In this document: positions 1,510-24,905 of the stretch, in pieces
Numbering within the stretch: position 1 is the first letter of the stretch
Layout of the letters: every line of letters begins with the position of its first letter
From: Candidatus Eiseniibacteriota bacterium
Lineage (GTDB): Bacteria; Eisenbacteria; RBG-16-71-46
Assembly: GCA_963717505.1 (NCBI GenBank)
Contig: OY970342.1
Coordinates: 2,656,001-2,720,000 of the forward strand
Direction of reading: 5' to 3'
Length of the DNA stretch: 64,000 nucleotides
Program-made: the position numbers and the translations under genes
Notes under the pieces: generated by a model
What the model was told of the DNA's origin: nothing
Databases searched by the model: none
The model's input: only the letters and a program-made list of their open reading frames with translations

Positions 1510-4590
<3,081 letters not shown>

Positions 4591-9600: not shown

Positions 9601-11392
9601 CGACGAGGGCCTGGCGACCCTGACCCGTTACTACTACCGGGTGACCGCCGTGGATTCCTCGGGGAATGCCTCGCCAGCTTCAGCGGTGTTCGCGGTGAGC
9701 ACGAATCCTCCGACCCACGCCTTCTTCCCGATTCCGATCCCGACCGCCTCGGCTTCGTCGGTCGCGATCGAGCACATTTGGTCCGGCTACCCGCTCAGCA
9801 TCGTGGCCGGCACCGGACGGAGCGAGATGGGCTCGGGCAGCGTGCTGTTCGGCTGGAACCCTGACGGATCGGCGCCGATCGATGCCGACGGTTCGATCGC
9901 GACCAGCGGGGACCTGACCGATCGCGGCCTGACCTACACCGCGCCGCCGTCGGTCGGCGACCTCGACGACAACGGTGAAGTCGAGATGGTGGCTTCTTCG
10001 TGGGACTCGATGCTGACCTTCGTGTTCCAACGGGACGGCAGCGTGCGACCGGGTTGGCCGGTGACCACCGACACACCGGTGTGGTCGTCCGCGGCGCTCG
10101 GGGATCTCGATGGCGACGGCGACTTCGAGGTCGTGTTCGGATCGAACGGCCAGAACATCTACGCGTTCAACCACAACGGCACCGAAGTGCGCGACGGCGA
10201 CGCCAATCCCGCGACGGTCGGCGTATGGCGGCGGGCGGACACCGGATTCAACTACGGCACGCCTTCGCTCGCCGATCTCGATGGCGACGGCAAGGCCGAG
10301 GTCATCATCGGTTCCTCGAACGGCTGGATCTACGCCCAACGTTGGAATGGCACCCCGGCCCCCGGCTGGAACCAGTACCGCGGCGGCGCCGGCGTGCACA
10401 TCTACGGCTCGCTCGCGGTCGGCTATCTGGACGGACCGTCCGACACCGAGCTCGACATCGTCGTGCCGATCCAGCGTGACAACAAGATGGATTCGCTGCT
10501 GGTCCTCCGCGCGAACGGGCAGAACCGCCCCGGCTGGCCGCAAAAGGCCGAGATCGGCGGCGGCTCGCTGCCACCGTCACCCGCGCTCGCCGACATGAAC
10601 AACGATGGCTTCCTCGACATCGTCCATGCCGGGACCGACGGCTTGATCTACGCGTTCAACCGGAACGGAACGCCGATCCTGCCGCTGCACGGCACGCGCT
10701 TCAGCTCGCTGACTCGGACCTCGACCACGTTCTCGACCGAGGCGAGTCCGGTGATCGCCGACATCAACGGCGATGGGCTGAACGACATCGTGATCGGCGA
10801 CGAGTTGGGCTTCCTGACCGCGGTCAGCGCGGACGGCACGATCTTGGCGGGATTCCCGATCCAGCTCGGCGGCGAGATCAAAGCCACCGCGGGCTTGTGC
10901 GACTGCGATGCCGACGGCATGACCGAGATCGTGGTGCCGGGATTGGACGAGATGGTCTACATGTGGGACTACGACTTCCCGTTCTCGCCGGCGGGCAAGC
11001 CGCCGTGGCCGCAGTTCCACCACGACGCGCGGCGCACGGGGTTGGTGACGACGCCGCAGTGGACCGGAGTCGAGGATCCGCCGCCGCCGTCGCCGTCTCC
11101 GGTTCGCACCCTCGAGTTCGCGCCGCCGTCGCCGAACCCGGCGCCGTACGACACGCGCATCTCGTGGGCGGTGCCGGCTTCCGCGGTCGGGACCGAATAC
11201 TCGATCGACATCTACGACCTGACCGGCCGGCGCGTGCGCGAGCTGGCGCGCGGCCCGGCTGCCGCCGGACGCCACGCGATCCAGTGGAACCTGCGCGACG
11301 ACGACCAGCGTCCGATCGAGAGCGGCGTCTACTTCATTCGCTTCCGCTTGGGACGGGAGGTGCGCTCGCACCGGATCGCCGTGCTGCGCTAA
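6629..11392 (+). CDS. Secreted C25 (gingipain-like) cysteine peptidase with propeptide, Ig/FN3 domains, FG-GAP repeats and FlgD-Ig C-terminal domain
   Basis: Signal peptide; EYLIIT, WVLLGGD and DxxPEVYVGR; catalytic-like HIGHG and ATNCTS; LLGDPEL; repeated DLDGDG/DINGDG FG-GAP motifs; C-terminus YDLTGRRVRELARG...WNLRD...SGVYFIRF. Confidence 0.88.
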   Translation: MTRCIAAAPFLLLAVLSVLPTPSLAASGSTLEREFRFAGDAVTLASVQGRTEVVVRGAMPTFETGQPDLPWTGEMVELPDGARVTGIEVLEIETEPLGEGVRLPSAQRVTPGLGPTERTPEDPVAFSRPGFQPDSPVQLGVQGFQQGKSMASLRICPVRWDAASGRLERVNRIRVRLILGTADGVPLRRQRDAGDNLGAARRAVAAAAQSVSPDPRGFQPTLLPSVLGSPVEYLIITDDALAPEFQRLADWKTQKGSPAVVRTISLLKQEYPHGADDSDRIRQFIRDAYVRWGTKWVLLGGDVHIVPTRFARTVFYGNENIPCDMYFSCLDGNWNADGDSLFGEGYASPEDLGDNVDLLPEVYVGRATVASLEEAALFVNKTLQYEKTPVGDYENTVLFFAEVLFPQNWTPGQLITMDGAQLAEECLPSLRDHEGIRYVRLYENNTDPLYEPGAYPETKQAVIDSLDRGYNVAVHIGHGYRNVMAVGHGENLDNGNALALTNGNRLFNLYATNCTSNAIDFPCIGEAFLLAPNGGAVTNVGSTRLDFPSAGRAYQKEYFRLVYEDSITAVGEAQAKQKLPFVVYSNTDNVNRWTQFTLLLLGDPELRIFTALPRTLDVLHPGSTFLGDSILAITVQSGGDPVAGATVVAYKAGDEYRRGTTNASGVCNLLFRPDSVGSVTLTVTAYDARPYQATIAISPSFQPVMAERLPVLDDDSVGGTIGNADGKLDAGETVGIVMQVKNAGWATGSGITGTLSTTEPSVSILQSTVSYGTIASGATTNVSSAYRISIPSTFADEREIRFKLLFADGSGRRWDEGFSLVSHARVLRHLSHTVLDPSGNGNGIAEAGETVDFIVRLLNSGTGGAAAVSATLRSEDGLASVTDSTASWGSITPGQEKNGDAFVFHMTSGGAKFRLRVTDAAGQVFNQVLDLVPPAAPLSAGGSGSATSITLYWSKSPEPDLQGYHIDRSSNVGGPFSRLTSIPTERIAYYVDEGLATLTRYYYRVTAVDSSGNASPASAVFAVSTNPPTHAFFPIPIPTASASSVAIEHIWSGYPLSIVAGTGRSEMGSGSVLFGWNPDGSAPIDADGSIATSGDLTDRGLTYTAPPSVGDLDDNGEVEMVASSWDSMLTFVFQRDGSVRPGWPVTTDTPVWSSAALGDLDGDGDFEVVFGSNGQNIYAFNHNGTEVRDGDANPATVGVWRRADTGFNYGTPSLADLDGDGKAEVIIGSSNGWIYAQRWNGTPAPGWNQYRGGAGVHIYGSLAVGYLDGPSDTELDIVVPIQRDNKMDSLLVLRANGQNRPGWPQKAEIGGGSLPPSPALADMNNDGFLDIVHAGTDGLIYAFNRNGTPILPLHGTRFSSLTRTSTTFSTEASPVIADINGDGLNDIVIGDELGFLTAVSADGTILAGFPIQLGGEIKATAGLCDCDADGMTEIVVPGLDEMVYMWDYDFPFSPAGKPPWPQFHHDARRTGLVTTPQWTGVEDPPPPSPSPVRTLEFAPPSPNPAPYDTRISWAVPASAVGTEYSIDIYDLTGRRVRELARGPAAAGRHAIQWNLRDDDQRPIESGVYFIRFRLGREVRSHRIAVLR

Positions 11393-11403
11393 TCTCGCGC
11401 GGC

Positions 11404-12884
11404 ATGAGCGTTCGCGTCCGCTTCGCTCCGAGTCCGACCGGCTACCTGCACGTCGGCGGCGCGCGCACCGCCTGTACAACTAGCTGTTCGCGCGCGGCCA
11501 GGGCGGCATGTTCGTCCTGCGCATCGAGGACACCGACGCGGCGCGCTCGACCGACGAGTCGGTCGCCGCGATCCTCGACAGCATGCGCTGGCTCGGGCTC
11601 ACCTGGGACGAGGGCCCCGACGTCGGCGGGCCGCATGGCCCCTACTTCCAGTCGCAGCGACGGGCGCTCTATCGGCAGCACGCCGACCAGCTGGTGGCGG
11701 CGGGTCGCGCTTATCCCTGCTACTGCACGCCCGAAGAGCTGGAAGCGCGTCGAACCGCGCAGCTCGCGCGCGGCGAGGCGCCGCGCTACGACGGTCGCTG
11801 CCGCGCGCGCGAGCGCCGGCGGAGCGCGCCGCGCGCGCCGCCGAGGGGCGGCCGGCCGCGCTTCGCTTCGCGCTCGAGGCGACGGGCGAGACCGCGTGGG
11901 AGGACATCGATCCGCGGCCGGGTCGCGTTCCAGAACGAAGTGCTCGACGACTTCGTGCTGCTGCGCTCCGACGGCCTGCCGACCTACAACTTCGCCTGCG
12001 TCGTCGACGACCACGACGATGGAGATCACCCACGTGGTCCGTGGCGACGACCACATCTCGAACACGCCGCGCCAGCTGCTGCTGTATCGCGGCCTTCGGC
12101 TGGAGCCGCCCGTTGTTCGCGCACGTGCCGATGATCCTCGGCGCCGACGGCACGCGGCTCTCCAAGCGCCACGGCGCCACCTCGGTCGCCTCGTTCGCGC
12201 GAGCTGGGCTACCTGCCCGAGGCACTCGACAACTTCCTGGCGCTGCTCGGCTGGTCGTACGACGGCACGACCGAGCTGTTCTCGCTCGCCGAGCTGGCGC
12301 AGAAGTTTCGGCTCGAGCGGGTCGGATCGAACCCGGCGGTGTTCAACCCGAGAAGCTCGAGTGGATGAACGGCCAGCACCTGAAGCGGCTGCCCGAGGAC
12401 GAGCGCGTGCGGCTCGTCGACCGAACACCTGACGGCGCGCGGCTACGACCTGGCGGGCACGCGACTCCGGAATGGATCGCGACGCTGGTGCGCGCGATCG
12501 GCGATCGGCTCAAGACGCTCGAGGACGCCGAGCGCTACGGCACTTTCGCGCTGCAGGAGCCGCTCGAGATCGACGAGACGGCATGGGCGGTAGTGCGCGA
12601 GAAGCCGCAGGTCGCGGAGCGGCTCGAGGCGCTGGCGGAGCAGGTGGAAGCCGATCGCGAGTTCTCCCTCGCGAGCCTCGAGCGCGAGACGCGTTCGCTC
12701 GCGACCGCAGCTCGGAATCAAGGCCGGCGAGCTGATCGGCATCGCGCGGGTCGCGCTGACCGGCCGCAAGGTGAGCCCCGGGATCTTCGAGGTGATGTGG
12801 CTGTTGGGAAGGGAACGCGCCGTCCGGCGTTTGCGGGAAGCCGCGTCACGCTGGCGGCAGGAGTCTCCGCTCGCGAGCGTGTAA
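11404..12884 (+). CDS. gltX: Glutamate--tRNA ligase (frameshifted in this assembly)
   Basis: [69 protein letters not shown] and [11 protein letters not shown] at 12882-12884. Confidence 0.93.
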
Positions 12885-12987
12885 CGGGGGAGGGCGGTTC
12901 GGCCGTTCGGCCCGTATCCGCGGTTCCGGACCGCATCGTCCTTGCTCGAATCGCGGCGCCGCTGGTAGCGTGGCGCGCCGTTTTCGC

Positions 12988-13061
12988 TGCCCGGTGGTGT
13001 AACGGTAGCACGACTGGCTCTGGACCAGTTAGTCGAGGTTCGAATCCTTGCCGGGCAGCCA
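12988..13061 (+). tRNA. tRNA-Gln(CTG)
   Basis: Acceptor stem TGCCCGG/CCGGGCA, anticodon arm ACTGG-CTCTGGA-CCAGT, GTTCGAATC T-loop and encoded CCA. Confidence 0.95.
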
Positions 13062-13096
13062 CTCCACGAAGTCTCGCGCATCGAAACGCGCGAAAC

Positions 13097-13125
13097 TTGA
13101 CCGTCGGCGCAGCGTTTTCTAGATT
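13097..13125 (+). promoter_or_regulatory. sigma70-type promoter of tRNA-Glu
   Basis: TTGACC-N17-TAGATT followed by a GC-rich discriminator-like sequence. Confidence 0.6.
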
Positions 13126-13161
13126 CGCCGGCCTTCGGCGCGACCGCTGGGTCGCGCACGT

Positions 13162-13270
13162 GGCGCTATCGTCTAGGGGTCTAGGACAGGTGGTTCTCAG
13201 CCATCAGACCGGGGTTCGAATCCCCGTTCTCAGCCATCAGACCGGGGTTCGAATCCCCGTAGCGCTACCA
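13162..13270 (+). tRNA. tRNA-Glu(CTC) containing a 33-bp internal tandem duplication
   Basis: GGCGCTA...TAGCGCT-ACCA acceptor and anticodon arm GGTGG-TTCTCAG-CCATC. The segment from anticodon loop to T-arm occurs twice. Confidence 0.88.
13194..13259 (+). repeat. Perfect 2x33-bp tandem repeat TTCTCAGCCATCAGACCGGGGTTCGAATCCCCG
   Basis: 13194-13226 is identical to 13227-13259. Confidence 0.95.
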
Positions 13271-13538
13271 ACGTTGCAACGATTTGCTGCGCTGTAAACG
13301 CCTCCGGCGCCCCTCAACACGGTCTCAATGACGCCCAGCCGGTTCCGGGTGCGTCTGCTATGGGAGCGACCCTCCGCTTCAGACCGCAAGGCCCTTCACT
13401 TGCGCTCGAGCGAGCCGGACGTGGTGCGCTTCCCGGGGTGGAGACCTGCAGGAATGACTTCTCGACCGGGCAAGTCTAGACTTCGTCATCGATGCAAGGG
13501 GACGAGTTTTTTCAAGACCTTACCGATGGAGGAGCACG

Positions 13539-13979
13539 GTGAAGATCGTTCAAGCTGCTCTCGGTGTACTCCTTTTGCTTGCTCTACCGGGTTGCGAGAA
13601 GGGCGACACGGGACCCATGGGGCCGGCTGGACCTCCCGGGCCACCGGGCCCCAGCGTGATTCTTGGCTATGCATCCGTGTCCTCAGGAGGCGCCGATCCC
13701 ACTCCCTTTGTGGGCAACTGGGGTGGGCCATCGATCACCAAGGTGACGTGCGAGAGGACCGCGCCCGGGAACTACGTCGTGCACTTCACGGGGGCAGGTT
13801 TCCTCAACGAAACGTACACTGCAATCAGCACGTCGACGACCAATGCCTCCGGCCATGAGGTCTATGGATTCGCCTTCTTCGCTTCGGACACGACCTTCGA
13901 CGCGAATGTGAACGTGTGGGAAGCAGGCAGGACAGGCGTGACCGTCGACGGGAGCTTCTCGCTGGTCGTGCTCAAGTAG
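13539..13979 (+). CDS. Small lipoprotein with a short collagen-like (Gly-X-Y) segment
   Basis: GGAGGAG RBS, GTG start, lipobox LPGC, GDTGPMGPAGPPGPPGP, then a beta-rich domain. Confidence 0.75.
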   Translation: MKIVQAALGVLLLLALPGCEKGDTGPMGPAGPPGPPGPSVILGYASVSSGGADPTPFVGNWGGPSITKVTCERTAPGNYVVHFTGAGFLNETYTAISTSTTNASGHEVYGFAFFASDTTFDANVNVWEAGRTGVTVDGSFSLVVLK

Positions 13980-14094
13980 TCAGGGGAGATCCTCACTACA
14001 AGGTCAGAGCGCGACGCGGTAGACGTGAGTCGCGCGAATGCTTGTTCCGTTTCGGAGTAGGCCCCCGAAATACCGGCCCCGGAGTCGGAAGAGC

Positions 14095-14109
14095 CAACGT
14101 GGTAGCGCT
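14095..14109 (-). repeat. Inverted copy of the tRNA-Glu 3' end and flank
   Basis: Reverse complement AGCGCTACCA-CGTTG versus AGCGCTACCAACGTTG at 13261-13276 (one-base gap). Confidence 0.6.
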
Positions 14110-14178
14110 GGAGGCTACGCGCTGACCCGTGCACCTAGTCATGCGGCGAGTGCGTGACGGAGAGCATCCATCTCGCGG

Positions 14179-14226
14179 AGCCATGAGGCGATCGGGTTCG
14201 TCCCCGCTCCCCGAAGGGCTACCAAC
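14179..14226 (+). repeat. Degenerate copy of the tRNA-Glu 3' half (att relic)
   Basis: AGCCAT..GGGTTCG..TCCCCGAAGGGCTACCAAC; the last 19 nt match TCCCCGTAGCGCTACCAAC at 17/19. Confidence 0.65.
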
Positions 14227-14860
14227 TTGGTGATCGGCGCGCGACTGGCGGCCGGCCGCTACGACCCGCCCGACGACCGCTCCTGACGACCAGCAGCGCG
14301 CCGGCTCCGGTCGGCGCGAGCGCCTCCGTGACGCGCTCGTCGGCGCTGACCAACTCGCGCAACGGGGCCACCTGGTCGGCGTGCGAGAGTACGTTATCGA
14401 CGACCAGCAGTCCGCCGGGTGCGAGCACGCGGACGAGGTCAGCCCAGTAGCCCGCGTAGGCCGGCCGCTCTGCGTCGAGAAAAATTAGCCCCCACTCGTC
14501 GTCAGCGGAGGCGGCTAGCGTTCGCGCCGCGTCGTCGGTGCGCAGCTGGGCATGGCCGTCCAGACCCGCGGCGGCGAGGTTTTCCCGCGCCTGCCGCGTG
14601 CGTGCAGGGTCGATCTCGACGGACACGAGCACTGAGCCAACGGCCCTGGCGGCATCGGCGAGCCACACAGTGGAGTAGCCGTTCGACGTGCCGAGCTCGA
14701 GAATCCGGTCAGGTTGCAGGGAGCGCACGAGCACGGCGAGCAGCGCCGCCGTGTCGGGCTCGACGTTACGCAGGCGGTCGAGCCGGTCCTCCTTCGCCGC
14801 ATCGTGGTCGCGCCCGTGGCGATAGAGGTCGCCGAGGAAACGCTGAAGCTGCGTGTCCAT
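14219..14860 (-). CDS. SAM-dependent O-methyltransferase (YrrM/CCoAOMT-like)
   Basis: ILELGTSNGYSTVWLA, VSVEID, IFLDAERPAY and PGGLLVVDNV. Confidence 0.88.
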   Translation of the reverse strand: MDTQLQRFLGDLYRHGRDHDAAKEDRLDRLRNVEPDTAALLAVLVRSLQPDRILELGTSNGYSTVWLADAARAVGSVLVSVEIDPARTRQARENLAAAGLDGHAQLRTDDAARTLAASADDEWGLIFLDAERPAYAGYWADLVRVLAPGGLLVVDNVLSHADQVAPLRELVSADERVTEALAPTGAGALLVVRSGRRAGRSGRPPVARRSPSW

Positions 14861-14905
14861 CCGTCCCTCCGAGTCAGTTGCCCAGGTTGTTGTCAGCCAG
14901 GTTGG

Positions 14906-15718
14906 CTAATGCGGCGCCGCCAACCGCGCCTCGTCCAATCTGCCCGGAAAGTAGGCAACATTGTGGAAGGCCTCGCGAGCAAGAGCCTCCGCCACGTATC
15001 GCGCCGTGGCAGCATCAGGCCCCAGAACGATGACGCGTGTGTTGTGGTCTTCCATGGGCAGCCGCCCATCGTCCTTGGCTCGCTTGAGCTCCCCGACATC
15101 CTTCCCCTCGAGCACCAGGCTGCGCGGGATGTTGCGCGCCCCCGATATCGTCCCCTTATTGAACTCGTCCGCCTCCCGCACGTCGAGAAGAACTGCGGTG
15201 CGGTCTTGGGCCAGGACATACCGGAGTCCCGCAGAATCGATCTCGCATACGCCACCGAGCGCCCGCCACACGGGTATGCCAAGTTGGTACCGTCTCACGT
15301 TGGTGAATCCAGCACCGAGAAGCTCCTCCGCCAGACGCTTGCTTTTCCCGCAGAACGGCCCGTTGCAGTAGAGCACCAGTGGTGCTGTTTTGTCGCCCTT
15401 GAGGACCCGGCCAATCTCCGCCACGTCCGAGACATACATGGACATCGGGACCCCCGCCTTGGCCGCCACGTTGCGGGCACCTGGAATGTGGCTGACCGCG
15501 TACTCGAGGAAGGGCCGCGTATCCAACACCGTGGCAGTTCCCTCCGCAAGAATGTGACGCAGCTCCTCCGTGGACACTTCTGAAGTGCGCTGGTTGGATT
15601 CGCCAAGCACCGCCTGATGAATGGTCTTCGCTTCTTCGGCGTGCGCTGTGAGCGCGACGGCCGCCAGCAAGGCGACCACGCGAGTCGTTAGTTTCAAGCC
15701 CGATCCCGGGTTGCTCAT
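14906..15718 (-). CDS. Exported tandem rhodanese-like domain protein
   Basis: AAGGAGGAG RBS and ATG at 15718, signal peptide, LDTRPFLEYAVSHIPGARNV, LYCNGPFCGKS. The second domain (LDVREADEF..GTISGARNIP) has no evident active-site Cys. Confidence 0.82.
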   Translation of the reverse strand: MSNPGSGLKLTTRVVALLAAVALTAHAEEAKTIHQAVLGESNQRTSEVSTEELRHILAEGTATVLDTRPFLEYAVSHIPGARNVAAKAGVPMSMYVSDVAEIGRVLKGDKTAPLVLYCNGPFCGKSKRLAEELLGAGFTNVRRYQLGIPVWRALGGVCEIDSAGLRYVLAQDRTAVLLDVREADEFNKGTISGARNIPRSLVLEGKDVGELKRAKDDGRLPMEDHNTRVIVLGPDAATARYVAEALAREAFHNVAYFPGRLDEARLAAPH

Positions 15719-15789
15719 ACGCTCCTCCTTGTCCTGATGGCCGACCGACAAAGAACGGCTGATGCCCGAGGCGCACGGCCTCGGTCTTC

Positions 15790-17688
15790 TTAAGGGGACG
15801 GGTCCAACCGCGAGGGACTCATGAACAGGTCGTCCCACAAGTGAACGCCCAGCACCGCAAGCAGGGACAACGCGTGATTTGCCGTGCGGGCGCGGTGTTG
15901 TTCGAATATCGCCGTGACGAACGGTGGGTCGAAATAACCGCGCCGCCGAACCTCCTCTGCGGAGAGTAGATCAGCCACGAACTCGGGTGGGTTGCGCAGC
16001 CACTGACTGTAAGGGATGGACAAGGGGTGCTTGGTGCGCCACAGGATTTCCGGCGGCAGGTCGTTGCGCAGGGCGTGCCGGAGGATGAACTTCTCCTGGC
16101 GCCCACGCATCTTGAGGGCAGGCGGAATTTGCGCGCACATTTCCACTAGCTCGTGATCGAGAAATGGCACGCGCACCTCGAGGCTGTGAGCCATGGACAT
16201 CGAATCGAGGTACCGGTTGATGAAATTGGGCAAGCGGATGCGAGTCTCGACATAGAGGAGCTGCGAGAAGGGGTGCCACCGCTTGAAGCTGTCGGGGAGC
16301 GTCAGCATGTCATCGCCATCCACCTGTGTCGCCAAAGTCTCCCGCAATTCGCCTGACAACAGGCGCGCATCGAAACCCAAGTTCGTCGTGTCGATCATCT
16401 GCCGGTAGCGCGCCAGGTTCAGGTCGGCGGGGCCGTTCAGGATGCGAGCCGCCCGCGGCCACCGCTGCCTGACCATCGGAACCCGGCTCAGCCATGAGCG
16501 GATGCCGGGCGGAAGCCGGGTCAAGAAGTGCAGCAACTCGTGATTCCGGAACCAAGCGTAGCCGCCGAACAATTCGTCGGAGCCTTCGCCGCTCAGCACG
16601 ACCTTGACGTGGCGCGCGCTCAGCTCGGCGAGAATCGACCGCGCGATCGCGAAGCCGACCGCCTGCGGATCCTCGCCGTGCCAAACCGCGAAGCGAACTC
16701 GCTCGAAGTCTCGCGTCGTGCACTCCACGCGGTGATCGACGAGTCGGTACTTCGGGAAGTCGCTCAGGATGCGATTCTGACGGAGCTCATCGAACCGAGG
16801 GTTCTCGAACCCGAGGCTGAACGTGTGAACAGGTTGGGCCGTGGCGTCGCGCATCAGGCTTACGACCACACTCGAGTCGATGCCGGCGCTGAGCCAGGCG
16901 CCGACCGGGACGTCGCTGCGCAGGTGGAGGCGCACCGATTCCTCGAGCTTGTCGCGGAGCCGAGCCGCCCACTCGTCAGCGTTCAAGTGCGGCGCGCCGT
17001 CTCTCGCATCCGGGAAACTCAGGTCCCAGTACCGGTGAGTCGAAAAGGATCCAGGCTCGTATAGAACATAGTGGCCGGGCAGGACCTGACGGATCGAGGC
17101 AAACAGGGTGCGAGGCGCGAGGACGAAGCTGAACGTCATGAGATCGCGGAGCGCCGAGGGATCGAGCCGACGCTCCACACGATCGGAGGTCAGAATGGCC
17201 TTGAGCTCAGAGCCGAAGTACAGCCCTTCCGGGGTTTCGGCGTAGCAAAGGGGCTTGATGCCGAACCGGTCGCGCGCGAGCAGGAGGCGACGGCGGCGAG
17301 CGTCCCACAGAGCGAATCCGAACATGCCGCGAAGGCGAGTGAGGCAGTCGAGGCCGTGCTGCTCGTAGAGGTGGACGATGACTTCGATGTCGGAGCCGGT
17401 GCGAAACCGGTGGCCGGTGGATTCTAGTTCTGCGCGCAGCTCCTTGAAGTTGTAGATCTCTCCATTGCCCACCACCGTGACGGTATCGTCCTCATTGGAG
17501 ATCGGCTGATCGCCGGTCTCGAGGTCGATGATGCTCAGGCGGCGGATGCCCAAGCCGACGCCGGCCCCGACGTGAAAGCCCTCGCTGTCCGGGCCGCGGT
17601 GGCGCAGACTGTCGGTCATGCGCCGGAGCATGCTCTGGTCGACCGGACGCGCTGGATCGGAGTAGACGACGCCGCAAATCCCGCACAT
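15790..17688 (-). CDS. asnB: Asparagine synthase (glutamine-hydrolysing) family amidotransferase
   Basis: MCGICG Ntn terminus, HRGPD, NGEIYN, RDRFGIKPL, LSAGIDSS, SGEGSDELFGGY and EVRVPFLD. Confidence 0.9.
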   Translation of the reverse strand: MCGICGVVYSDPARPVDQSMLRRMTDSLRHRGPDSEGFHVGAGVGLGIRRLSIIDLETGDQPISNEDDTVTVVGNGEIYNFKELRAELESTGHRFRTGSDIEVIVHLYEQHGLDCLTRLRGMFGFALWDARRRRLLLARDRFGIKPLCYAETPEGLYFGSELKAILTSDRVERRLDPSALRDLMTFSFVLAPRTLFASIRQVLPGHYVLYEPGSFSTHRYWDLSFPDARDGAPHLNADEWAARLRDKLEESVRLHLRSDVPVGAWLSAGIDSSVVVSLMRDATAQPVHTFSLGFENPRFDELRQNRILSDFPKYRLVDHRVECTTRDFERVRFAVWHGEDPQAVGFAIARSILAELSARHVKVVLSGEGSDELFGGYAWFRNHELLHFLTRLPPGIRSWLSRVPMVRQRWPRAARILNGPADLNLARYRQMIDTTNLGFDARLLSGELRETLATQVDGDDMLTLPDSFKRWHPFSQLLYVETRIRLPNFINRYLDSMSMAHSLEVRVPFLDHELVEMCAQIPPALKMRGRQEKFILRHALRNDLPPEILWRTKHPLSIPYSQWLRNPPEFVADLLSAEEVRRRGYFDPPFVTAIFEQHRARTANHALSLLAVLGVHLWDDLFMSPSRLDPSP

Positions 17689-17714
17689 GGTTCCGCGAGT
17701 CTACACGGCCCACT

Positions 17715-17756
17715 AGCCATTGGGACCGGGACTTGAATCTCCGTAGCGCTACCAAC
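17715..17756 (+). repeat. Degenerate copy of the tRNA-Glu 3' half (attR-like)
   Basis: AGCCATTGGGACCGGGACTTGAATCTCCGTAGCGCTACCAAC aligns to 13232-13272 at about 35/42, with the last 16 nt exact. Confidence 0.88.
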
Positions 17757-18260
17757 TCAGCCGGTCGACTCCTGCCGCCCCTGGAACTGCGGCTCCGAGA
17801 GGAATCGCTCGATCTGCCGCCGGTGGCGGAGCACGTGGACGATGGCATGCTCGAGCGACTGTTCGAGATCGTAGGTCGGCCCCCATGGGGTCTCGATCTT
17901 CACCGCCATGATCTGCTCGTCCGTCATCTCCCAATGGCCTTCGAGCGTCTCGTCCGTGAACGCGAGCATCGCCCGAAGCCGGTCGAGACTCTGTGCCCGT
18001 GACATGGGCAGCACTTCGGGCCGTGTGGTGGGAACCCCGAACGCGTTTCGAATCCTGGTCGCATACCCGTAGCCGGCATTGACCACGTGATGCATCACGG
18101 TCTGGATCGACCGACAGGATTCGTCCTGCGTTTTCAGATCGCGGAGTCGTTCGAAGGCTGCTTCGTCGATGCCCTCGATGACCCGCACCAGATCCGCGGC
18201 CGCCCGCTCGTACTCGTCCATCATCGCGCCGACGCCGCCCTTGCGGTATTTCCTGGTCAT
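17757..18260 (-). CDS. DinB/DUF664 superfamily protein, copy 1
   Basis: SIQTVMHHVV ... EHAIVHVLRHRRQI His-triad pattern; GGAGGA RBS. Confidence 0.8.
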   Translation of the reverse strand: MTRKYRKGGVGAMMDEYERAAADLVRVIEGIDEAAFERLRDLKTQDESCRSIQTVMHHVVNAGYGYATRIRNAFGVPTTRPEVLPMSRAQSLDRLRAMLAFTDETLEGHWEMTDEQIMAVKIETPWGPTYDLEQSLEHAIVHVLRHRRQIERFLSEPQFQGRQESTG

Positions 18261-18313
18261 GGTTTCGAGTCCTCCCTAGAACTCCGAGCGCCGCGGTCCG
18301 TTCGCCGAATCCA

Positions 18314-19299
18314 CTACCAGTAGGCCCCGAACCGAAAGACCACATCCACGGCGGGACCGTTCGGCAGGAGGTCCTGGGTCATTGCGAGGAAAACAGGTGT
18401 GACCGCTCGCAAAGTGGAAGAGAGTGCCCAGGTCCAGGCCGAACTCGTTTGCGTCGAGCTCCGGAATTCCGGAGTCACGATAGTAGGGCGTCGCGAGGAG
18501 GAAGTTCGCGTAGGCGTGCCAGGGTCCGAGGAGCCGGGCACGGGCTCCTTGGGTGAGGAGGCCGAACGTCGTCCGCTGCCACTCGCCCAAATCGCCATTT
18601 CGTGGGGTGTATCCCACTCCGAAAGTTCCCTCGTAAGCGAATCGGCCCTCGGCGCCAAACTCACGGTGGAAGGTGGTCGTGAGATTCGCGGACGGAACGC
18701 CCTTGCGATATCCGGCCGGCTCGGATCCGGTCGGAAGCGTGACCGTGAGAACGCTCTGCCAGTGGCGATGGTGGCGTAACCCAGCGCCGACCCTCAAGTC
18801 CCCGAAGAAGCCCACCGCCTCTTCGTACTCGAAGTCTCCGCCCTTGAAATCGATCTGATAGCCGAAGGAGTTCTCCGGTCGCTTCCTGCGTCCGAGGACG
18901 CTCACTCCAAAGACGTCGTGATATGCGTTCAGGAAGTCGTCGAGTCGGCCGTCGCTCGCGAGGTTCCAGCTCGCTCCGGCCAGCACGAAACCACTCGAAC
19001 CGATTCTTCGAGCGACGAGAGCGCGCGTGGAGAGGATCTCGGCGTCCAGGACGAAGTCCATCGAAGGTGTGGCCGTGTACTCCGCGAGGCTCCCATAGTC
19101 GGTGGTGACCTGGACGTGCCAGACCCTATCTGGGGACGAGCCAGGGAAGGGTCGTGAGACCGGAGCGCATCTCGACGACGGGATTGAGGGGAGAGAGAGG
19201 CGGGAGTCCCTGAGCGGCCAAGGGGCTTCCGGTCGCGAGGACCGCAAGTGAAGCGATCCCTGCGACCCAGCGCGACGTGGTGCTCGTGAGTAGGTGCAA
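18314..19299 (-). pseudogene. Outer-membrane barrel-like protein (DUF3187-like) split by two frameshifts
   Basis: TTG at 19299 gives MHLLTSTTSRWVAGIASLAVLATGSPLAAQGLPPLSPLNPVV. It shifts near 19130 into LDDFLNAYHDVFG...GDLRVG...LTVTLPTG, then near 18400 into DVVFRFGAYW*. Confidence 0.55.
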
Positions 19300-19320
19300 G
19301 TCGACCTTTCGGGTGGAGCG

Positions 19321-19803
19321 CTACTGGAACTGGGGCTCCGACAGAAATCGTTCGATCTGCCGTCGGTGGCGGAGCACGTGGACGATGGCATGCTCGAGCG
19401 ACTGTTCGAGATCGTAGATTGGCCCCCATGGCGTCTCGATTCTCACCGCCATGATCTGCTCGTCGGTCATTTCCCAATGGCCTTCCAGCGTTTCGTCCGT
19501 GAACGCGAGCATCGCCCGAAGCCCGTCGAGACTCTGCGCCCGGGACATGGGTAGCACCTCCGGCCGTGGAGTTGGAACCCCGAACGCGTTTCGAATCCTG
19601 GTCGCATACCCGTAGCCGGCATTGACCACGTGATGCATGACGGTCTGGATCGATCGGCAGGATTCGTCCTGCGTTTTCGGATCGCGCAATCGGACGAATG
19701 CCGCTTCGTCGATGCTTTCGATCACGCGCACCAGCTCCGCGGCCGCCCGCTCGTACTCGTCCATCATCGCGCCCACGCCACCCTTGCGGTATTTCTTGGT
19801 CAT
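19321..19803 (-). CDS. DinB/DUF664 superfamily protein, copy 2
   Basis: Nine substitutions over 160 aa relative to copy 1; identical 17-bp upstream RBS region. Confidence 0.8.
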   Translation of the reverse strand: MTKKYRKGGVGAMMDEYERAAAELVRVIESIDEAAFVRLRDPKTQDESCRSIQTVMHHVVNAGYGYATRIRNAFGVPTPRPEVLPMSRAQSLDGLRAMLAFTDETLEGHWEMTDEQIMAVRIETPWGPIYDLEQSLEHAIVHVLRHRRQIERFLSEPQFQ

Positions 19804-19894
19804 GGTTTCGAGTCCTCCCTGAGGGAAGGTACCCTACCGGTTCTGGGAGGGACTTCGGTTGCGGGGCGACCCGCGTCGTGTTCGGAAAGGCTAC

Positions 19895-21430
19895 CTAGCG
19901 CGTCAGCACGAAGCTCCGTGCGTCGCGATCCGCGCCGGCACTGAGGCGCACGACGTAGGCGCCGGGTGGCAGACGCCGGCCCGATTCGCCGCGGCCATCC
20001 CACTCGACCTCGTGGCGTCCGGCGTCGAACACCCGGTCCACCGGGGTCGCCACGCGCCGCCCGGCGAGGTCGAGCACTTCGAGTCGGGCGGTGACCGAGC
20101 GGGCGCATTCGAACACGAATCGAATCGGGGCCGCTCCCGGATTGGGGCGGGGCGCCAGTAGTCGAACCTCACGCGCTCTCGGGGTCGAGAGTGGCACGTC
20201 GGTCACCGGGCAACCCACTCCAAGGGCTCCGATCAATCCACAGGGATCGGAGGGCGCGCACGGCGACCCCGGCTTCAGCGCGAGGTTGCGATGATCGGAA
20301 TCGCAGAACAGAGGATCTTCGGAGATGTTGCCGTCGATTCCCGTGAGATCGCCGCAGACGCCGCCGTAGTTCGAAGCCCCATTGCCCCATACGTCATTGC
20401 ATCGGACCTGAGCGAACACCTCGGTGCAGAAGATCCCCACTCCGCCGTTGCGCGCGACGATGTTGTTCTCGACGTGGAGCCCGCCGCCGAACGAGATCCC
20501 ACCGGCCTGGGGAGAGAGGATGCTGTTGAACGCGATGGTATTGCCGAGCACCTCCCCCGGACCGAATGCCTCGATCACGAATCCGCCAATGGCGTCGTTG
20601 TCGAAGAAGACGTTGCCGGCGATCGTGACCGCGTTCAGATAGGCATTGCTCTGGATGGCCGCAGCCCCATACGTGCCCCGGTTGCCTACGAACCGGCACT
20701 GTTCCACGAACAGGCCACCACCCCCCGAAATCGCACCGCCGTATCCGCCGCCATTGCCCTCGAACTCGCAATTCCGAACACTGACCCGAACGTCTTCTTC
20801 CGCGGCGATGGCGCCTCCAGATCCGCCCTCGAATCCCGCGGCCACATTGCCGTCGAATCGGCACTTGACCGCAGTCAGCGTTCCGGTTGCGGCCACGTAC
20901 ACCGCGCCGCCAGAGCAAAAATCGAAGGTGCCGCTGGTCGCGGAATTCTGCGCGAAGGTGCTGCTCTCGATCGTGGCGCTGCACAGCGGGTCGACGCGTA
21001 GCGCCCCACCGGAGCTGGAACCGGAATCGACGCGTGCCACGTTGTTGAAGAACCGGCAGCTGCGGATGGTGACTCCGGCGCCATCGCGAAGGTAGAGGGC
21101 GGCCCCGGTGGTCGCCCGCCCCGACCGAAACACCAGCCTCTCGAGCACGGTGGCCGACGTCACCCCGGCGCCGATTTCGAGGATGCGCGCGTTCGACGTG
21201 AGCACGGCAGCGTAGTTCTCACCCCGGATCGTGACATCCTTGCCGGCGAGGCTCAGCGATTCGTTGTAGGTGCCGTCGCGGATCAGGATCTCATCTCCGC
21301 TCGCCGCGGCCGTGATGGCGCCCTGGACGGTCGGATAGTCGTCAGGGACGACGAGCGTCGCGGCCGAGGCGCCGCGCACACAGACGAACACGAGTGACAA
21401 GATGGCCGAACGCAGGAGGATCGAGGTCAT
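19895..21430 (-). CDS. Secreted right-handed beta-helix (Pmp-like repeat) protein with FlgD-Ig C-terminal domain
   Basis: Signal peptide, VPDDYPTVQGAI, repeated FxxN...GGA(I/L), GNISEDPLFC; C-terminus PNP...LDLAGRRVAT...WDGRGESGRRLPPGAYVVRL. Confidence 0.85.
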   Translation of the reverse strand: MTSILLRSAILSLVFVCVRGASAATLVVPDDYPTVQGAITAAASGDEILIRDGTYNESLSLAGKDVTIRGENYAAVLTSNARILEIGAGVTSATVLERLVFRSGRATTGAALYLRDGAGVTIRSCRFFNNVARVDSGSSSGGALRVDPLCSATIESSTFAQNSATSGTFDFCSGGAVYVAATGTLTAVKCRFDGNVAAGFEGGSGGAIAAEEDVRVSVRNCEFEGNGGGYGGAISGGGGLFVEQCRFVGNRGTYGAAAIQSNAYLNAVTIAGNVFFDNDAIGGFVIEAFGPGEVLGNTIAFNSILSPQAGGISFGGGLHVENNIVARNGGVGIFCTEVFAQVRCNDVWGNGASNYGGVCGDLTGIDGNISEDPLFCDSDHRNLALKPGSPCAPSDPCGLIGALGVGCPVTDVPLSTPRAREVRLLAPRPNPGAAPIRFVFECARSVTARLEVLDLAGRRVATPVDRVFDAGRHEVEWDGRGESGRRLPPGAYVVRLSAGADRDARSFVLTR

Positions 21431-21574
21431 GGCGGTGCCCCTCGGGAGGTTTCGGCGACGGGATAACTATGATCCGGCGGTACCGAAGGAGCAAGACAAT
21501 TTGAGGTCGGTCTCGACGACGGTTTCGCGTCGGGCGGGAGGCGGTCACTGGGCGCCAGGGAGGCGCGGCGTCGG

Positions 21575-22060
21575 CTAGGGTGCCAGGATCTCGACAGCCA
21601 CCGGCGCCGAAGTGTGAACGTCGGCGCTCTCGGTGAAACCGCCCAGCACGTGATACTCGCCGGGCGGCAGGGGTTCCCCGGCACGAGAGGTTCCATCCCA
21701 CGAGAACCGACTCGTGCCGCTCTCGCCCGCAGCGAAGACAATGGTCCGGGCCTCTGCGGTGCACAACATGGCGTACGGGGCGACGACCGCGTCGTTCCCA
21801 TCTCGGACGACGTACGAGGCAATGCACCCCGAAGCGAAGTGCATCCGGATCGGACGATTCGTCGGGTTCTTGAAGCCGACCTCGACCTGCACGGTCTCGC
21901 CGGCTTGGAATCGGGCGGGCGTGACGATCACCCAGGTGATCATCGCCGCCGGATCCGCGAACCCCGAAGGGGCAACGATGACGCTGAACTGTCCGCCGCA
22001 ACCCGTGAGGAGCACGGGGATCAGTAGGGCGGCCACGCCAATCCGATGAAGGGACTTCAT
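21575..22060 (-). CDS. Lipoprotein with BsuPI-like/Ig-like domain
   Basis: Lipobox LTGC; FKNPTNRPIRMHFASGC...WDGTSRAGEPLPPGEY. Confidence 0.6.
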   Translation of the reverse strand: MKSLHRIGVAALLIPVLLTGCGGQFSVIVAPSGFADPAAMITWVIVTPARFQAGETVQVEVGFKNPTNRPIRMHFASGCIASYVVRDGNDAVVAPYAMLCTAEARTIVFAAGESGTSRFSWDGTSRAGEPLPPGEYHVLGGFTESADVHTSAPVAVEILAP

Positions 22061-22121
22061 ACGGCATCAATCGTACTACCCGCGTCCGTGGGGCCCGAGC
22101 GAAACCTGATACCGTCGGTTC

Positions 22122-22220
22122 TTGACCCGGTGCCTGTAGCCTCCCTAGACTCCGCCGGCGGTTGTCGGGACCACCTAACCTCAACTTCGGACAGGAGTTC
22201 GGCCCCCCGAACGCCGATAA
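22122..22220 (+). promoter_or_regulatory. Candidate promoters of the EPS operon (sigma70-like and sigma28 -10 box)
   Basis: TTGACC-N18-TAGACT at 22122-22151; GCCGATAA at 22213-22220. Confidence 0.4.
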
Positions 22221-22265
22221 CCGTGACTCCGCTCGGCGGATCCCGCGCCGCCGGATGCGGTCCCG

Positions 22266-24905
22266 ATGCGCTACCGTGACGTCGAGCCTTCCGGCGATCC
22301 CCGGACGGGCCGGATGGAACGAATGGGCCTTCAGAGAGCCAGACGAATACTGTTCCTGACCCTCGGGTACGCCGCCGTGGTCCAGGTGGCCTACCTCGGG
22401 GCGTTGCTCGTTCGCTTCGAAGGCGCAATCCCGCCCCAATACCTGCGCGGCTATGCCCAGATCGCGCCGGTGTTCACCGCGCTGTCGCTACTGGGATTCC
22501 TGCTCTCCGGCCTCTATCACGGGGTCTGGCGCTACGCGAGCACGGTCACGGCGTTCCAGGTGTTCAAGGGTGTCACGCTGTCGGCGGCGGCACTGGCGCT
22601 GATCATGTTCTTCACGCCGATCCTGCTGTTCCCGCGCAGCGTGATCGTGTTGGTCTGGCTGTGGGAGCTGGTTCTGCTCGGCGGCCTGCGCTTCGCGTGG
22701 CGGATTTCGAGCGAGCGCCTGCTCGAGCCCGAGCCGCGGCGCTACGTGCGCGTGCTCGTGGTCGGCGCCGACCATGCCGGGGTTCATCTGATCCAGGAGA
22801 TGCGACGCGGCGGCGAGGCGGGCGAGCGGCTGCGACCGATCGGGTTCGTCGACAACGACGCACGGCTGTCCGGCAGCACGATCGAAGGCGTCAAAGTGGT
22901 CGGAGCGATTGGCGACTTGCCTCGGCTCATCCCCGAGAAGCGCATCGAGATGGTGGTCATCTCCGATTCCGGCATACCCGGCCGGGTGGTGCGCGAGATC
23001 GCGAGTTACTGCGCCGAGGCCAACGTCGTGGTCAAGACGGTGCCGGCCTACTCGAGCCTCCAGCACGGCAAGAGCGCGTTGTCGCAGATCCGCGACGTGC
23101 GCATCGAGGACCTGCTGGGACGTGAGCCGGTCCATCTCGACCTGAACGAGGTCGGCCAGTTCCTGCGTGGCCAGCGCATTCTGGTCACCGGCGCCGGAGG
23201 ATCGATCGGGGCCGAGCTGGCCCGCCAGTCCGCCGCGGAGGAGCCCGCGGAGCTGGTGTTGCTCGACCACTCGGAGAACGGCCTCTACTACGTTCAGAAC
23301 GAGATCGCCGCACTGCACCCGGCCGTGCCGCTGCACGCCGTGGTCGCCGACATTCGCGACGCCGACGGCATGCGCCTCGCCTTCGAGCGCTATCGGCCGA
23401 CCGTGGTGTTCCACGCCGCCGCGCACAAGCACGTGCCGCTGCTCGAAGCCGCGCCGCGCGAAGCGGTGTTCAACAACGTGGTCGGCACGCGCAATCTGGT
23501 CGAGGCGGCCGAACGCGCCGGGGTCGGTAAGTTCGTGTTCATCTCGACCGACAAGGCAGTCAATCCGAGCAGCGTCATGGGGGCCTCGAAGCGGGTCGGC
23601 GAGATGATCCTGCAGGCACGCTCGCAACGCAGCAAGACGCGCTTCATGGCCGTGCGCTTCGGCAACGTCCTCGGCAGCGAAGGCTCGGTGGTCCCGCTGT
23701 TCCAGCGTCAGATCCAGCGCGGCGGTCCGATCACCGTGACCCATCCCGAGACCCGGCGCTACTTCATGACCATCCCCGAAGCGGTGCGCCTGGTGATCCA
23801 GGCCGGCGCGATCGGCAAGGGCGGCGAGGTCATGTTGCTCGACATGGGCGAGCAGGTGCGGATCGTGGACCTGGCGCGCCAGCTGATCCGCATGTCGGGC
23901 CTGCGCGAGGGGCACGACATCGAGATCGTGTTCACCGGCCTGCGCCCCGGCGAGAAGCTCTACGAAGAGCTGCACTCCGACGAAGAGCGCATGCGCATGA
24001 CGAGGCACCAGCGAATCCTGGCCTGGGATCTGGACGCGCGCGACGAGATCGTCCTTCGCCGCGAGCTCGACGACCTCGAGCGGGTCGCACGCAACGGCGA
24101 TTCCGCGGCGATCAAGGAAGCGCTCCACCGCATCGTTCCCGAGTACGTCGAGCGCGTCCACGATCCGCGCGAAGCCGTGCCCGCCACGCCGGTGGTGTCC
24201 CTGCCGGTCGCGGCCGCTTCGACGGTGGCCGGCGCGGAGCCGCCGCGTTGGAACAGTCTGCGCACGCTGATCGAGGGTGGCCTCGCGCTGGTTCTGATTG
24301 TGGTCTCGGTGCCTCTTTGGGGTTTGTTGTGGCTCGAGGCGCAGCGCGCGCAGCGGGGATCGTTCCTGGTGCACGAGCAACGCGTGGGCCGCACCCGGCG
24401 TGGTGCCGCGCGGCTCGAGGGCGGGTCGGGGGCGCCGGACGGAGTCGAGCGACGCTCCCGCGACCGGATGGGGGAGAGTCTGCACTGCATGCGCTTCCGC
24501 GATGACCTGGGCCGCATCAGCCGCTGGGTCTGGCGGCGGCGACTCGACCGTCTGCCGTTCCTGCTCAACGTGATTCGCGGCGAGATGGCGCTGGTCGGTC
24601 CCAACCCCGAAACCGAATCGGTCGTCGAGCGTTGGCTGTCGTTCCCCGACTACCCGCGCCGGTTCCGGGTGCTGCCCGGCGTCACCGGGCTCGCGCAGGT
24701 GTCGGGTTGCGGCGCCGACGACGACGAGAGCGTGAAGCGCCGCATTCAGTACGACCTCCACTACGTGGATCATCAGTCGTTGCTGCTCGATGTGCGTACG
24801 ATGTTCCGCACGATCGGCGTGCTCGCCGGGGCCCCGCGGCGCGAACCCGACTCGGGCCATGCGGTGGTGGAGTCGCCGGCGGCGCTCAAAGGAGTGACGC
24901 AGTGA
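22266..24905 (+). CDS. CapD/PglF-type NDP-sugar 4,6-dehydratase fused to a C-terminal monotopic phosphoglycosyltransferase-like (Bac_transf) domain
   Basis: Four N-terminal TM helices, IEDLLGREP, TGAGGSIG, HAAAHKHVPL, STDKAVNP, RFGNVLGS and GLRPGEKLYEEL. The C-terminal part has LLNVIRGEMALVGP, PGVTGLAQV and YDLHYV. Start may be the ATG at 22314. Confidence 0.9.
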   Translation: MRYRDVEPSGDPRTGRMERMGLQRARRILFLTLGYAAVVQVAYLGALLVRFEGAIPPQYLRGYAQIAPVFTALSLLGFLLSGLYHGVWRYASTVTAFQVFKGVTLSAAALALIMFFTPILLFPRSVIVLVWLWELVLLGGLRFAWRISSERLLEPEPRRYVRVLVVGADHAGVHLIQEMRRGGEAGERLRPIGFVDNDARLSGSTIEGVKVVGAIGDLPRLIPEKRIEMVVISDSGIPGRVVREIASYCAEANVVVKTVPAYSSLQHGKSALSQIRDVRIEDLLGREPVHLDLNEVGQFLRGQRILVTGAGGSIGAELARQSAAEEPAELVLLDHSENGLYYVQNEIAALHPAVPLHAVVADIRDADGMRLAFERYRPTVVFHAAAHKHVPLLEAAPREAVFNNVVGTRNLVEAAERAGVGKFVFISTDKAVNPSSVMGASKRVGEMILQARSQRSKTRFMAVRFGNVLGSEGSVVPLFQRQIQRGGPITVTHPETRRYFMTIPEAVRLVIQAGAIGKGGEVMLLDMGEQVRIVDLARQLIRMSGLREGHDIEIVFTGLRPGEKLYEELHSDEERMRMTRHQRILAWDLDARDEIVLRRELDDLERVARNGDSAAIKEALHRIVPEYVERVHDPREAVPATPVVSLPVAAASTVAGAEPPRWNSLRTLIEGGLALVLIVVSVPLWGLLWLEAQRAQRGSFLVHEQRVGRTRRGAARLEGGSGAPDGVERRSRDRMGESLHCMRFRDDLGRISRWVWRRRLDRLPFLLNVIRGEMALVGPNPETESVVERWLSFPDYPRRFRVLPGVTGLAQVSGCGADDDESVKRRIQYDLHYVDHQSLLLDVRTMFRTIGVLAGAPRREPDSGHAVVESPAALKGVTQ

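Follow-up and report, generated by a model that had tools for sequence, protein, structure and literature searches.

The 64-kb window analysed here (the whole stretch of DNA, G000:C1:2656001-2720000, from a single-contig genome of 4.16 Mb) carries, directly downstream of its tRNA-Glu(CTC) gene, a 9-kb interval which is best read, with a probability of roughly 0.75, as one or more decayed, integrase-less island remnants at a tRNA-Glu(CTC) attachment site (attB) that serves as an integration hotspot throughout the family. A direct repeat of the tRNA 3' half, the hotspot in related genomes, the absence of an integrase and the lineage-specific content of the interval were observed directly, and no sign of an active capture machine was found. 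The features on which this reading is based are as follows.

12988..13061, plus strand: tRNA-Gln(CTG), intact, the upstream neighbour (ARAGORN; Rfam tRNA model, 62.9 bits)
13162..13270, plus strand: tRNA-Glu(CTC) gene, 76 nt with a 33-nt internal tandem duplication (ARAGORN, Rfam)
13194..13259, plus strand: two identical 33-nt units, 13194-13226 and 13227-13259, covering tRNA positions 32-65
13273..17714, no strand assigned: island remnant 1, ~4.5 kb (Pfam, G+C content, absence from relatives)
14179..14226, plus strand: relic A, candidate older att relic, heavily decayed (17/19 at its 3' end, score 28)
17715..17756, plus strand: relic B, displaced tRNA-Glu 3' half, an attR-type direct repeat (35/42, score 46)
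17757..22265, minus strand: lineage-specific DNA from relic B to capD (Pfam, G+C content)
22323..24905, plus strand: capD-like polysaccharide biosynthesis gene fused to a sugar transferase, the right-hand anchor (Pfam)

Copies of the tRNA 3' half

The 40-nt 3' half of the tRNA was aligned with both strands of the genome by the Smith-Waterman method (+2/-3/-5/-2; 69,374 windows per strand), a check proposed in an earlier note on this DNA, and among the distal copies only that at 17715-17756 (relic B) was clearly significant. It scores 46, while the best unrelated locus in the genome reaches 30 (plus strand) or 29 (minus strand), and its ungapped 22-nt part gives a BLAST E-value of 0.002 against the whole genome. 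The agreement of about 35/42 given in the note was reproduced, with 35 matches, 6 mismatches and 1 gap in 42 columns. The insert starts at 13273, directly 3' of the tRNA-Glu(CTC) gene and two bases past its CCA, and its far boundary is this direct repeat of the tRNA 3' segment, in which the match extends over two bases (AC) past the CCA. The 7 columns of 42 in which relic B differs include the anticodon-loop core, the loop TTCTCAG having become CACTAG in the aligned columns. Such a mutated core suggests that relic B is unlikely to be a usable att site and, since the crossover region is affected, the 4.5-kb remnant is probably immobile. No other copy of the att segment was found by BLAST in the whole genome.

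The agreement of 17/19 over the last 19 nt of the copy at 14179-14226 (relic A) was recovered as the earlier note had it, and its score of 28 is not significant genome-wide. Scores of at least 28 were obtained in 15 of the 69,374 plus-strand windows, 7 of them belonging to the tRNA and the two relics, and in 12 of the 69,374 minus-strand windows; three other scoring schemes place 8-25 plus-strand and 7-21 minus-strand loci level with or above relic A. Its position corresponds to a P of ~0.01 when the 4.4 kb from the tRNA to relic B are considered and of ~0.02 for 9 kb, and within these 9 kb the next-best chance match, inside asnB, reaches 91 vs 99 for relic A. That relic A is a genuine relic is accordingly a tentative view, a little short of even odds. 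The 18300-18319 and 19317-19324 traces, listed as weaker copies, are present as written but at background level: their scores of 14 and 16 are attained by 35 and 12% of windows, respectively, the first lies within the DUF3187-like coding sequence, and the 8-mer of the second, AGCGCTAC, has 110 occurrences on the plus strand of the genome. An explanation of the AGCGCTAC trace as part of the DinB duplication was rejected, as the duplicated segment begins at 17781/19324 and leaves the 8-mer almost wholly outside. The copies had further been said to stand at the 3' ends of minus-strand gene blocks; this applies to those at 14179 and 17715 but not to the tRNA-proximal one, the neighbour of which (13539-13979) is on the plus strand.

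A scan of 17757-22265 yielded no significant relic. The motif GCGCTACC at 22268-22275 precedes the aligned capD start by 48 nt, the place at which G021 and G006 carry the tRNA end or a relic. It was considered as the oldest relic and rejected (score 16, not significant, with a conserved promoter-like element upstream); at most it hints at a very old relic. Weak relics scoring 20-24 in the intervals of relatives were also discarded, being equally frequent on the control strand.

The same slot in relatives

The order gltX - tRNA-Gln - tRNA-Glu - capD is kept in the loci of 18 relatives, with capD orthologues of 54-70% identity downstream of tRNA-Glu in 15 relatives. Among the 15 relatives with both tRNA-Glu and capD on one contig, the distance from tRNA-Glu to capD is 27 nt in G021, 0.4-4.0 kb in 13 genomes and 11.1 kb in G008. 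None of the nine intervening genes of the present genome was found in these 15 tRNA-capD intervals at E <= 1e-5, save for weak beta-helix or C-terminal-domain matches; the beta-helix matches are short (29-38% identical), stem from three fetched loci and fall inside the tRNA-Glu-capD interval in G012 only. A DNA search of 88 family genomes returned no orthologous block, only similarity in conserved domains; the 65-76% matches to the rhodanese and AsnB N-terminal segments are never longer than 700 nt, some DinB matches of at most 100 nt reach 80-82%, and all of them lie at other loci. In 80 AsnB loci taken from 185,579 species genomes, the best AsnB relatives are ~35-42% identical over their full length and a methyltransferase or rhodanese is beside AsnB in none (0/80). 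A donor for the cargo was sought and not traced, there being no close AsnB relative and no shared neighbours. Comparison of the gltX/tRNA-Glu to capD interval across relatives, another check proposed in the earlier note, showed variable content and no shared block.

The G+C content of 13273..17714 is 64.3% compared with 67.7% for the genome (5th percentile of 4.5-kb windows, a mild deviation), and that of 17757..22265 is 64.8%, placing both halves at the 5th-6th percentile. G+C content at third codon positions (GC3) is 0.72-0.82 in the interval and 0.87-0.88 in the flanking core genes. Given its absence from relatives and its lowered G+C and GC3, the 9-kb interval consists throughout of mildly atypical DNA specific to this lineage, filling a hypervariable slot that conserved anchors enclose. 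In the other genomes searched this slot lacks these genes; in G010 it is occupied by an integrase-bearing element.

The relatives differ, too, in the length of the spacer that separates tRNA-Gln from tRNA-Glu; it ranges from 10 nt to 2.7 kb (G008, L013 1716-4454), and in G004 (L028 1223-2397) it carries a gene for a CorA-type transporter.

The attachment-site hotspot

The intact 76-nt tRNA-Glu(CTC) was compared with the 101 other genomes of the order. It was matched in 90 of these, the 11 genomes without a match being 53-87% complete, and a second partial copy was identified in ~10 of the 101 (G010, G094, G004, G011, G084, G059, G006, G036, G081, and G103). The second copies begin at tRNA positions 29-40, within the anticodon loop or next to it, which agrees with the boundary described in the earlier note. 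Four ambiguous second copies were set apart, those of G056 and G099 (probably one gene cut by a contig end), G091 (only 78% identical) and G066 (two full copies in a bin with 6% contamination). Three or more copies of the tRNA-Glu 3' half were present in none of the 101 genomes. A search for tRNA-Glu in 40 relatives included the unpublished G026, which adds only one intact tRNA copy to the counts. Both copies are found on one contig in six genomes, where they enclose the following islets.

G010, 10.4 kb: PF00589 tyrosine integrase (70 bits) by the distal copy, HK97-type capsid, C5 methylase and Bpu10I-like endonuclease
G094, 6.4 kb: AbiJ-domain protein, IS3-type transposase
G004, 3.1 kb: two Kelch-repeat genes and a short open reading frame (ORF) adjoining the tRNA
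G011, 1.9 kb: glyoxalase-fold gene, unrelated IS3-type transposase
G084, 1.15 kb: no recognisable domain
G059, 0.49 kb: no recognisable domain

The G010 element is bounded by an exact 45-51-nt copy of the 3' half. Its presence at the same tRNA bears out the claims that the tRNA 3' half is a target of site-specific integration and that the interval was acquired. The element (L016 (G010:C107) 1946-12344) looks intact, and GAAGGGAC-type motifs, candidate arm-type integrase sites, are repeated near both of its ends; by size it could be a satellite or cryptic prophage.

In the other five islets, PF00589 was absent by profile search. The last 58 residues of the short ORF of G004 are 65-76% identical to the C-termini of 370-530-aa frames in family genomes. 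A search with this fragment matched 48 of 89 genomes, G004 included and the present genome not, and two of the matched frames are PF00589 hits. The short ORF itself has no Pfam match, and blastp against six integrases lent it no support; the 58-aa segment is a putative integrase C-terminal fragment, an assignment supported by the matched frames. Apart from the att repeat, no sequence common to the islets, or common to them and the present genome, was found. The six islets look like a decay series of integrated elements within which the 4.5-kb remnant falls; their range from a 10.4-kb integrase-bearing element down to 0.5 kb is consistent with stepwise decay.

The IS3-type (rve) transposases of G011 (L017 2725-3624) and G094 (L129 5625-6782) are located 100-250 nt 5' of the distal copy. 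They look like independent insertions, since they are only 27% identical over 88 residues. In G084 (L128) and G081 (L131), which belong to two genera, ~25 nt of the 30 nt upstream of the distal copies are alike with few changes, which suggests remnants of one element family.

A tandem duplication within the tRNA gene

The tRNA-Glu(CTC) gene begins at 13162, as the earlier note had it. The 'exact' copy that it had listed at 13227-13272 is a real recurrence of sequence but no separate relic, being the second unit of a tandem duplication inside the gene. Since the duplicated unit begins with the first anticodon-loop base and ends with the last one of the T stem, the gene is disrupted. ARAGORN calls no tRNA-Glu at 13162-13270 as assembled, in either the window or the whole genome, and the Rfam tRNA model covers just 13168-13227 (32.9 bits, model positions 7-64 of 71), while deletion of one 33-nt unit in silico restores the call of a 76-nt tRNA-Glu(ctc). 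As assembled, tRNA-Glu(CTC) is predicted to be no functional tRNA gene. It is unbroken in all 18 of the relatives' loci fetched. The only tRNA called by ARAGORN in the window is tRNA-Gln(CTG), and the only tRNA-Glu called genome-wide is a gene with a UUC anticodon at another location; odd 'tRNAs' at genome positions 280073, 506827, 2834057, and 3623405 (91-98 nt or with undefined anticodon) were dismissed as false positives in coding-like DNA.

In the 4.16 Mb, Tandem Repeats Finder identified no perfect tandem repeat of period 20-120 nt apart from the 33-nt duplication, and only two repeats of this period reach 97% or more. The duplication begins, to within one base, where the att identity block of the relatives starts. 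The duplication may be the remnant of a nearly fully deleted element, the product of slippage or an assembly error. Under the first of these, almost all of a further element would have been lost along with the final 11 nt of the rebuilt tRNA, so that attL and attR became adjacent as the zero-length end of the decay series. Slippage would have occurred at the bases of the tRNA hairpins. A 33-nt pattern spanning the tandem junction had no match in JGI metagenome contigs. If the duplication is real, a tRNA reading the major Glu codon was knocked out at its own attachment site, a concrete cost of being attB, and the organism would depend on tRNA-Glu(UUC). A tRNA gene disrupted by tandem duplication of its own att segment is not described in those parts of the island and CIME (cis-mobilizable element) literature drawn on here, the literature searches not having been aimed at this point.

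The third possibility, that both the duplication and the frameshifts in the adjacent gltX are errors of metagenome long-read assembly in a stretch common to co-occurring relatives, the tRNA-Glu(CTC) of the organism being normal, deserves serious weight, although we consider it somewhat less probable than its opposite. The gltX paralogue (11404-12900), upstream of both tRNAs, contains in-frame stops and is spread over three frames, whereas its orthologues in G019, G009, and G017 align in one frame with 69-71% identity. Of 25 query ORFs subjected to a frameshift test 23 were clean, both of those flagged being gltX, and no frameshift was seen in capD or the two genes downstream of it. Logan contigs ~95% identical to the gltX stretch carry 1-nt indels where the orthologue alignment has gaps, restoring the frame, although such divergent contigs may derive from another strain. 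As gltX is frameshifted and these contigs restore its frame, the assembly around gltX and tRNA-Glu may be unreliable; gltX 11404-12900 is either a real pseudogene beside a broken tRNA or a case of locally poor assembly. Completeness is scored at 86.7% despite the single-contig assembly. In the order, every high-quality genome (53/53) has a match to tRNA-Glu(CTC). GAG accounts for 72% of the Glu codons in 644 long ORFs of this genome, which would make loss of this tRNA unusual. On the other hand, the duplication is perfect and the sole such repeat in 4.16 Mb, while typical long-read errors are 1-nt indels rather than 33-nt duplications, and the position of its left edge at the att boundary suggests a biological origin. 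A tRNA-Glu(TTC) gene exists in the genome as well, and could read GAG through wobble. Public data on 12900-17800 consist entirely of Logan contigs, the best run covering 21% of sampled words; those on 11300-23000 are 150-560-nt pieces of depth 2-5, many of them 100% identical within the island. None of the contigs or joints listed decides on the 33-nt duplication or reveals an empty site or a circle, an outcome without weight in either direction.

Recombinase genes

The earlier statement that the region is free of integrases was upheld, as no recombinase was detected there or in the 64-kb window by Pfam analysis of the large ORFs, a PF00589 search or tblastn. Genome-wide, the search for tyrosine recombinases that the note had asked for returned six PF00589 matches, all outside the window and the nearest ~307 kb from the tRNA. 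Permissive tblastn with the G010 integrase and five of the genome's own integrases found no integrase remnant in 13273-22400 (best E-value 0.09), and the tail of the methyltransferase, tried as such a remnant, was dismissed (blastp E = 0.097). The protein closest to the G010 integrase in this genome is a 48%-identical relative 764 kb away, near which no tRNA-Arg repeat was found, and the integrase type represented by the G004 fragment has 0 homologues in this genome. The 33-mer of the tRNA 3' end had 0 matches in viral_contigs, and no phage attP was found there.

Proposed history and alternatives

The tRNA-Glu(CTC) 3' half would act as attB for tyrosine-integrase elements across the family, with crossover in or beside the anticodon loop. 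At least one such element would have integrated, the tRNA being rebuilt from the element's own 3' half and the original 3' half being displaced to 17715-17756 as relic B. The integrase and most other genes would then have been deleted, leaving a 4.5-kb cargo of lipoprotein, O-methyltransferase, rhodanese and AsnB-type amidotransferase genes, while relic B would have drifted to 35/42 with mutation of its crossover core, fixing the remnant in place. As a weak suggestion, relic A may be an older scar that the element brought along. The DNA at 17757-22265 is probably still older acquired DNA, and may be an island whose far relic has decayed.

Several observations weigh against this history. Relic A, if real, is more decayed than the more distal relic B, an order which is predicted by neither proximal nor distal stepwise accretion and which would fit an old scar in a composite element, a route mentioned in the CIME literature. 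No integrase pseudogene links the cargo to any particular element, and the islets of other genomes share no interior or arm sequence with the present one. The deletion model for the 33-nt duplication requires one deletion end exactly at the att boundary, and with the adjacent gltX frameshifted relative to all orthologues the duplication may be absent in the organism. The relatives compared are all from outside the genus, and at that distance gain and loss of the genome's own blocks are not traceable. Finally, the near-perfect repeats around the integrase-less islets (G094, G004, G011, G084, and G059) are also readable as products of recent mobilisation in trans; a 40-nt repeat is, however, too short to date, and the near-perfect repeats neither support nor exclude such mobilisation.

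Taken further, mobilisation in trans would make the integrase-less islets (0.5-6.4 kb in relatives, 4.5 kb here) a cassette pool moved in cis or trans by G010-type elements, the window a multi-cassette array and the 33-nt copy a footprint of aberrant excision that killed the tRNA, a scheme that we regard as very unlikely.

The integron-like platform put forward in the earlier note, in which a recombinase encoded elsewhere captures blocks of 0.5-3.5 kb at the tRNA and copies of the 3' half take the place of attC sites, is highly improbable. It is favoured by the lack of an integrase in the region, the location of relics A and B at the 3' ends of minus-strand gene blocks, the tyrosine recombinases encoded elsewhere in the genome and the retention of near-perfect repeats by the five of six same-contig islets that have no PF00589 integrase. 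However, only one distal relic reaches significance and the 18300 and 19317 traces are background, at least three copies occur in 0 of 101 genomes, and no gene block is common to different genomes. In the islets of relatives, gene orientation is mixed, and an integrase fragment in one and IS3-type transposases in two point to decay with secondary insertion rather than to clean cassettes. The genome also has no second att copy elsewhere and nothing closely homologous to the two types of integrase observed at this site; relic B carries mutations in its crossover core, and the stronger decay of relic A is the wrong order for simple stepwise accretion. Integrase-less, att-flanked remnants beside tRNA or tmRNA genes have, moreover, already been described as decayed islands or CIMEs in the parts of two reports used here (PMC3146451, PMC5704250). 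Repeated capture in trans is thus not borne out, with only one significant distal relic, no recurring cassette and no genome with at least three copies; by the note's own account, significance of the 17715 copy only, which is what was found, would make this 'one ordinary decayed island'.

That the relics are chance matches, in ordinary fast-evolving DNA next to a polysaccharide gene cluster where site-specific integration never took place, is hardly credible: relic A and both traces are at or near background and AsnB-type genes often lie near capD-like genes (capD-like matches in 10 of 80 AsnB loci), but chance is refuted for relic B by the genome-wide scan (46 vs a maximum of 30 on the same strand in 4.16 Mb, in the same orientation as the tRNA and 4.4 kb from it), and the same type of repeat occurs at the same tRNA in relatives, one of them with an integrase.

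Comparison with described systems

The closest described architecture appears to be that of the tandem ssrA islands of Dehalococcoides, which are bounded by direct repeats of the ssrA 3' end and some of which are without integration modules (McMurdie et al., 2011; PMC3146451). In the portions of that paper used here, the authors interpret the module-less islands either as possible CIMEs or as elements that have become fixed in the chromosome. Both systems have lineage-specific DNA 3' of a small stable-RNA gene, bounded by repeats of its 3' end, and in both the DNA past the last repeat may be older acquired DNA that has lost its signatures. They differ in that the ssrA islands, as described there, have a tmRNA target, a 20-bp repeat, the serine recombinase DsiB and up to several clear repeats per strain, whereas the present locus has a tRNA anticodon-loop site, a tyrosine integrase in G010 and one clearly significant distal repeat. 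A tandem array would consist of at least two islands with significant repeats; here the second repeat (14179-14226) has a local P of ~0.01-0.02 and is not significant genome-wide, and the tandem 33-nt copy could count as a third repeat of an accretion array.

The primary papers on CIMEs and accretion are said to be those of Pavlovic from 2004 and Bellanger from 2011. For the integrative and conjugative or mobilizable elements (ICE/IME) of Streptococcus, a three-step route of integration, decay to a CIME and accretion has been set out (Guedon et al., 2017; PMC5704250). In the terms of the part of that review used here, the present remnant resembles a CIME in that it arose when an integrated element decayed and that, in principle, a later arrival could join it; it has attL and attR flanks and no integration or transfer genes. 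A CIME by that definition keeps usable att sites, whereas relic B has 7 differences in 42 columns, with the crossover region included, and its usability is doubtful. The genome furthermore has no partner element.

Classical islands and prophages in tRNA genes, with a displaced tRNA 3' fragment, were reportedly described by Reiter in 1989 and Williams in 2002, the latter of whom is said to have listed the position in or beside the anticodon loop as one integration sublocation. The present locus is like these in having a direct repeat of the tRNA 3' part at the far end of the insert and an identity block that starts in or beside the anticodon loop, and it differs from them in the missing integrase and in the disruption of the tRNA gene itself by a tandem att-segment copy. 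Position, direct repeat, absence in relatives and G+C content are all as in such islands; an integrase is lacking. The locus is filed as a decayed remnant and not as an intact island, because the element contains no integrase gene. Fragments of tRNA genes are common as attR scars, according to the part used here of a later study (van der Gulik et al., 2023; PMC9897764).

The likeness to integrons is superficial and consists of short gene blocks in one orientation with sequence resembling a recombination site at each 3' end. Here there is no adjacent intI, no attI and, in an analysis that did not extend to attC folding, no attC-type imperfect palindrome; the blocks resemble cassettes neither in size nor in gene content, and only one separator is statistically real. 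The 64-kb window encodes no tyrosine recombinase, and the separators are tRNA fragments. No recurring block was found in 88 family genomes, in 80 AsnB loci or among the islets. The locus is an ordinary kind of genome scar and no new gene-capture mechanism. Its wider interest is that tRNA-Glu(CTC), placed between gltX/tRNA-Gln on one side and the capD polysaccharide cluster on the other, emerges as an integration hotspot of the whole family, which is useful for annotating these mostly uncultured genomes and for interpreting contig breaks at tRNA-Glu(CTC).

Gene content of the interval

Nine genes are located between tRNA-Glu and capD, the last five of them beyond relic B. Except where stated, they were named by Pfam.

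13539-13979, plus strand: collagen-like lipoprotein ORF (Pfam collagen-like repeat, E = 0.011)
14219-14860, minus strand: O-methyltransferase
14906-15838, minus strand: tandem rhodanese
15790-17688, minus strand: AsnB-type amidotransferase
17757-18260, minus strand: DinB
18276-19391, minus strand: DUF3187-like barrel
19321-19803, minus strand: second DinB
19895-21430, minus strand: beta-helix protein with FlgD_ig tail
21575-22060, minus strand: BsuPI-like protein

Pfam agrees with the names that the earlier note had given to the O-methyltransferase, rhodanese, AsnB, DinB, DUF3187-like and second DinB genes, and the methyltransferase ORF does end in TGG-TAG as claimed. For capD, the longest ORF starts at 22266, yet the start codon that aligns with 16 relatives is at 22323. 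A promoter-like element (TTGACA, ~17 nt, TAGAAT) is conserved 250-300 nt 5' of capD in 13 relatives, and its counterpart in the window is TTGACC...TAGACT at 22122-22151. The DinB pair forms an ungapped direct repeat of 497 nt (17781-18277 vs 19324-19820, 91.8% identical) around the DUF3187-like gene, and the first DinB has a C-terminal extension of 7 residues that reaches relic B.

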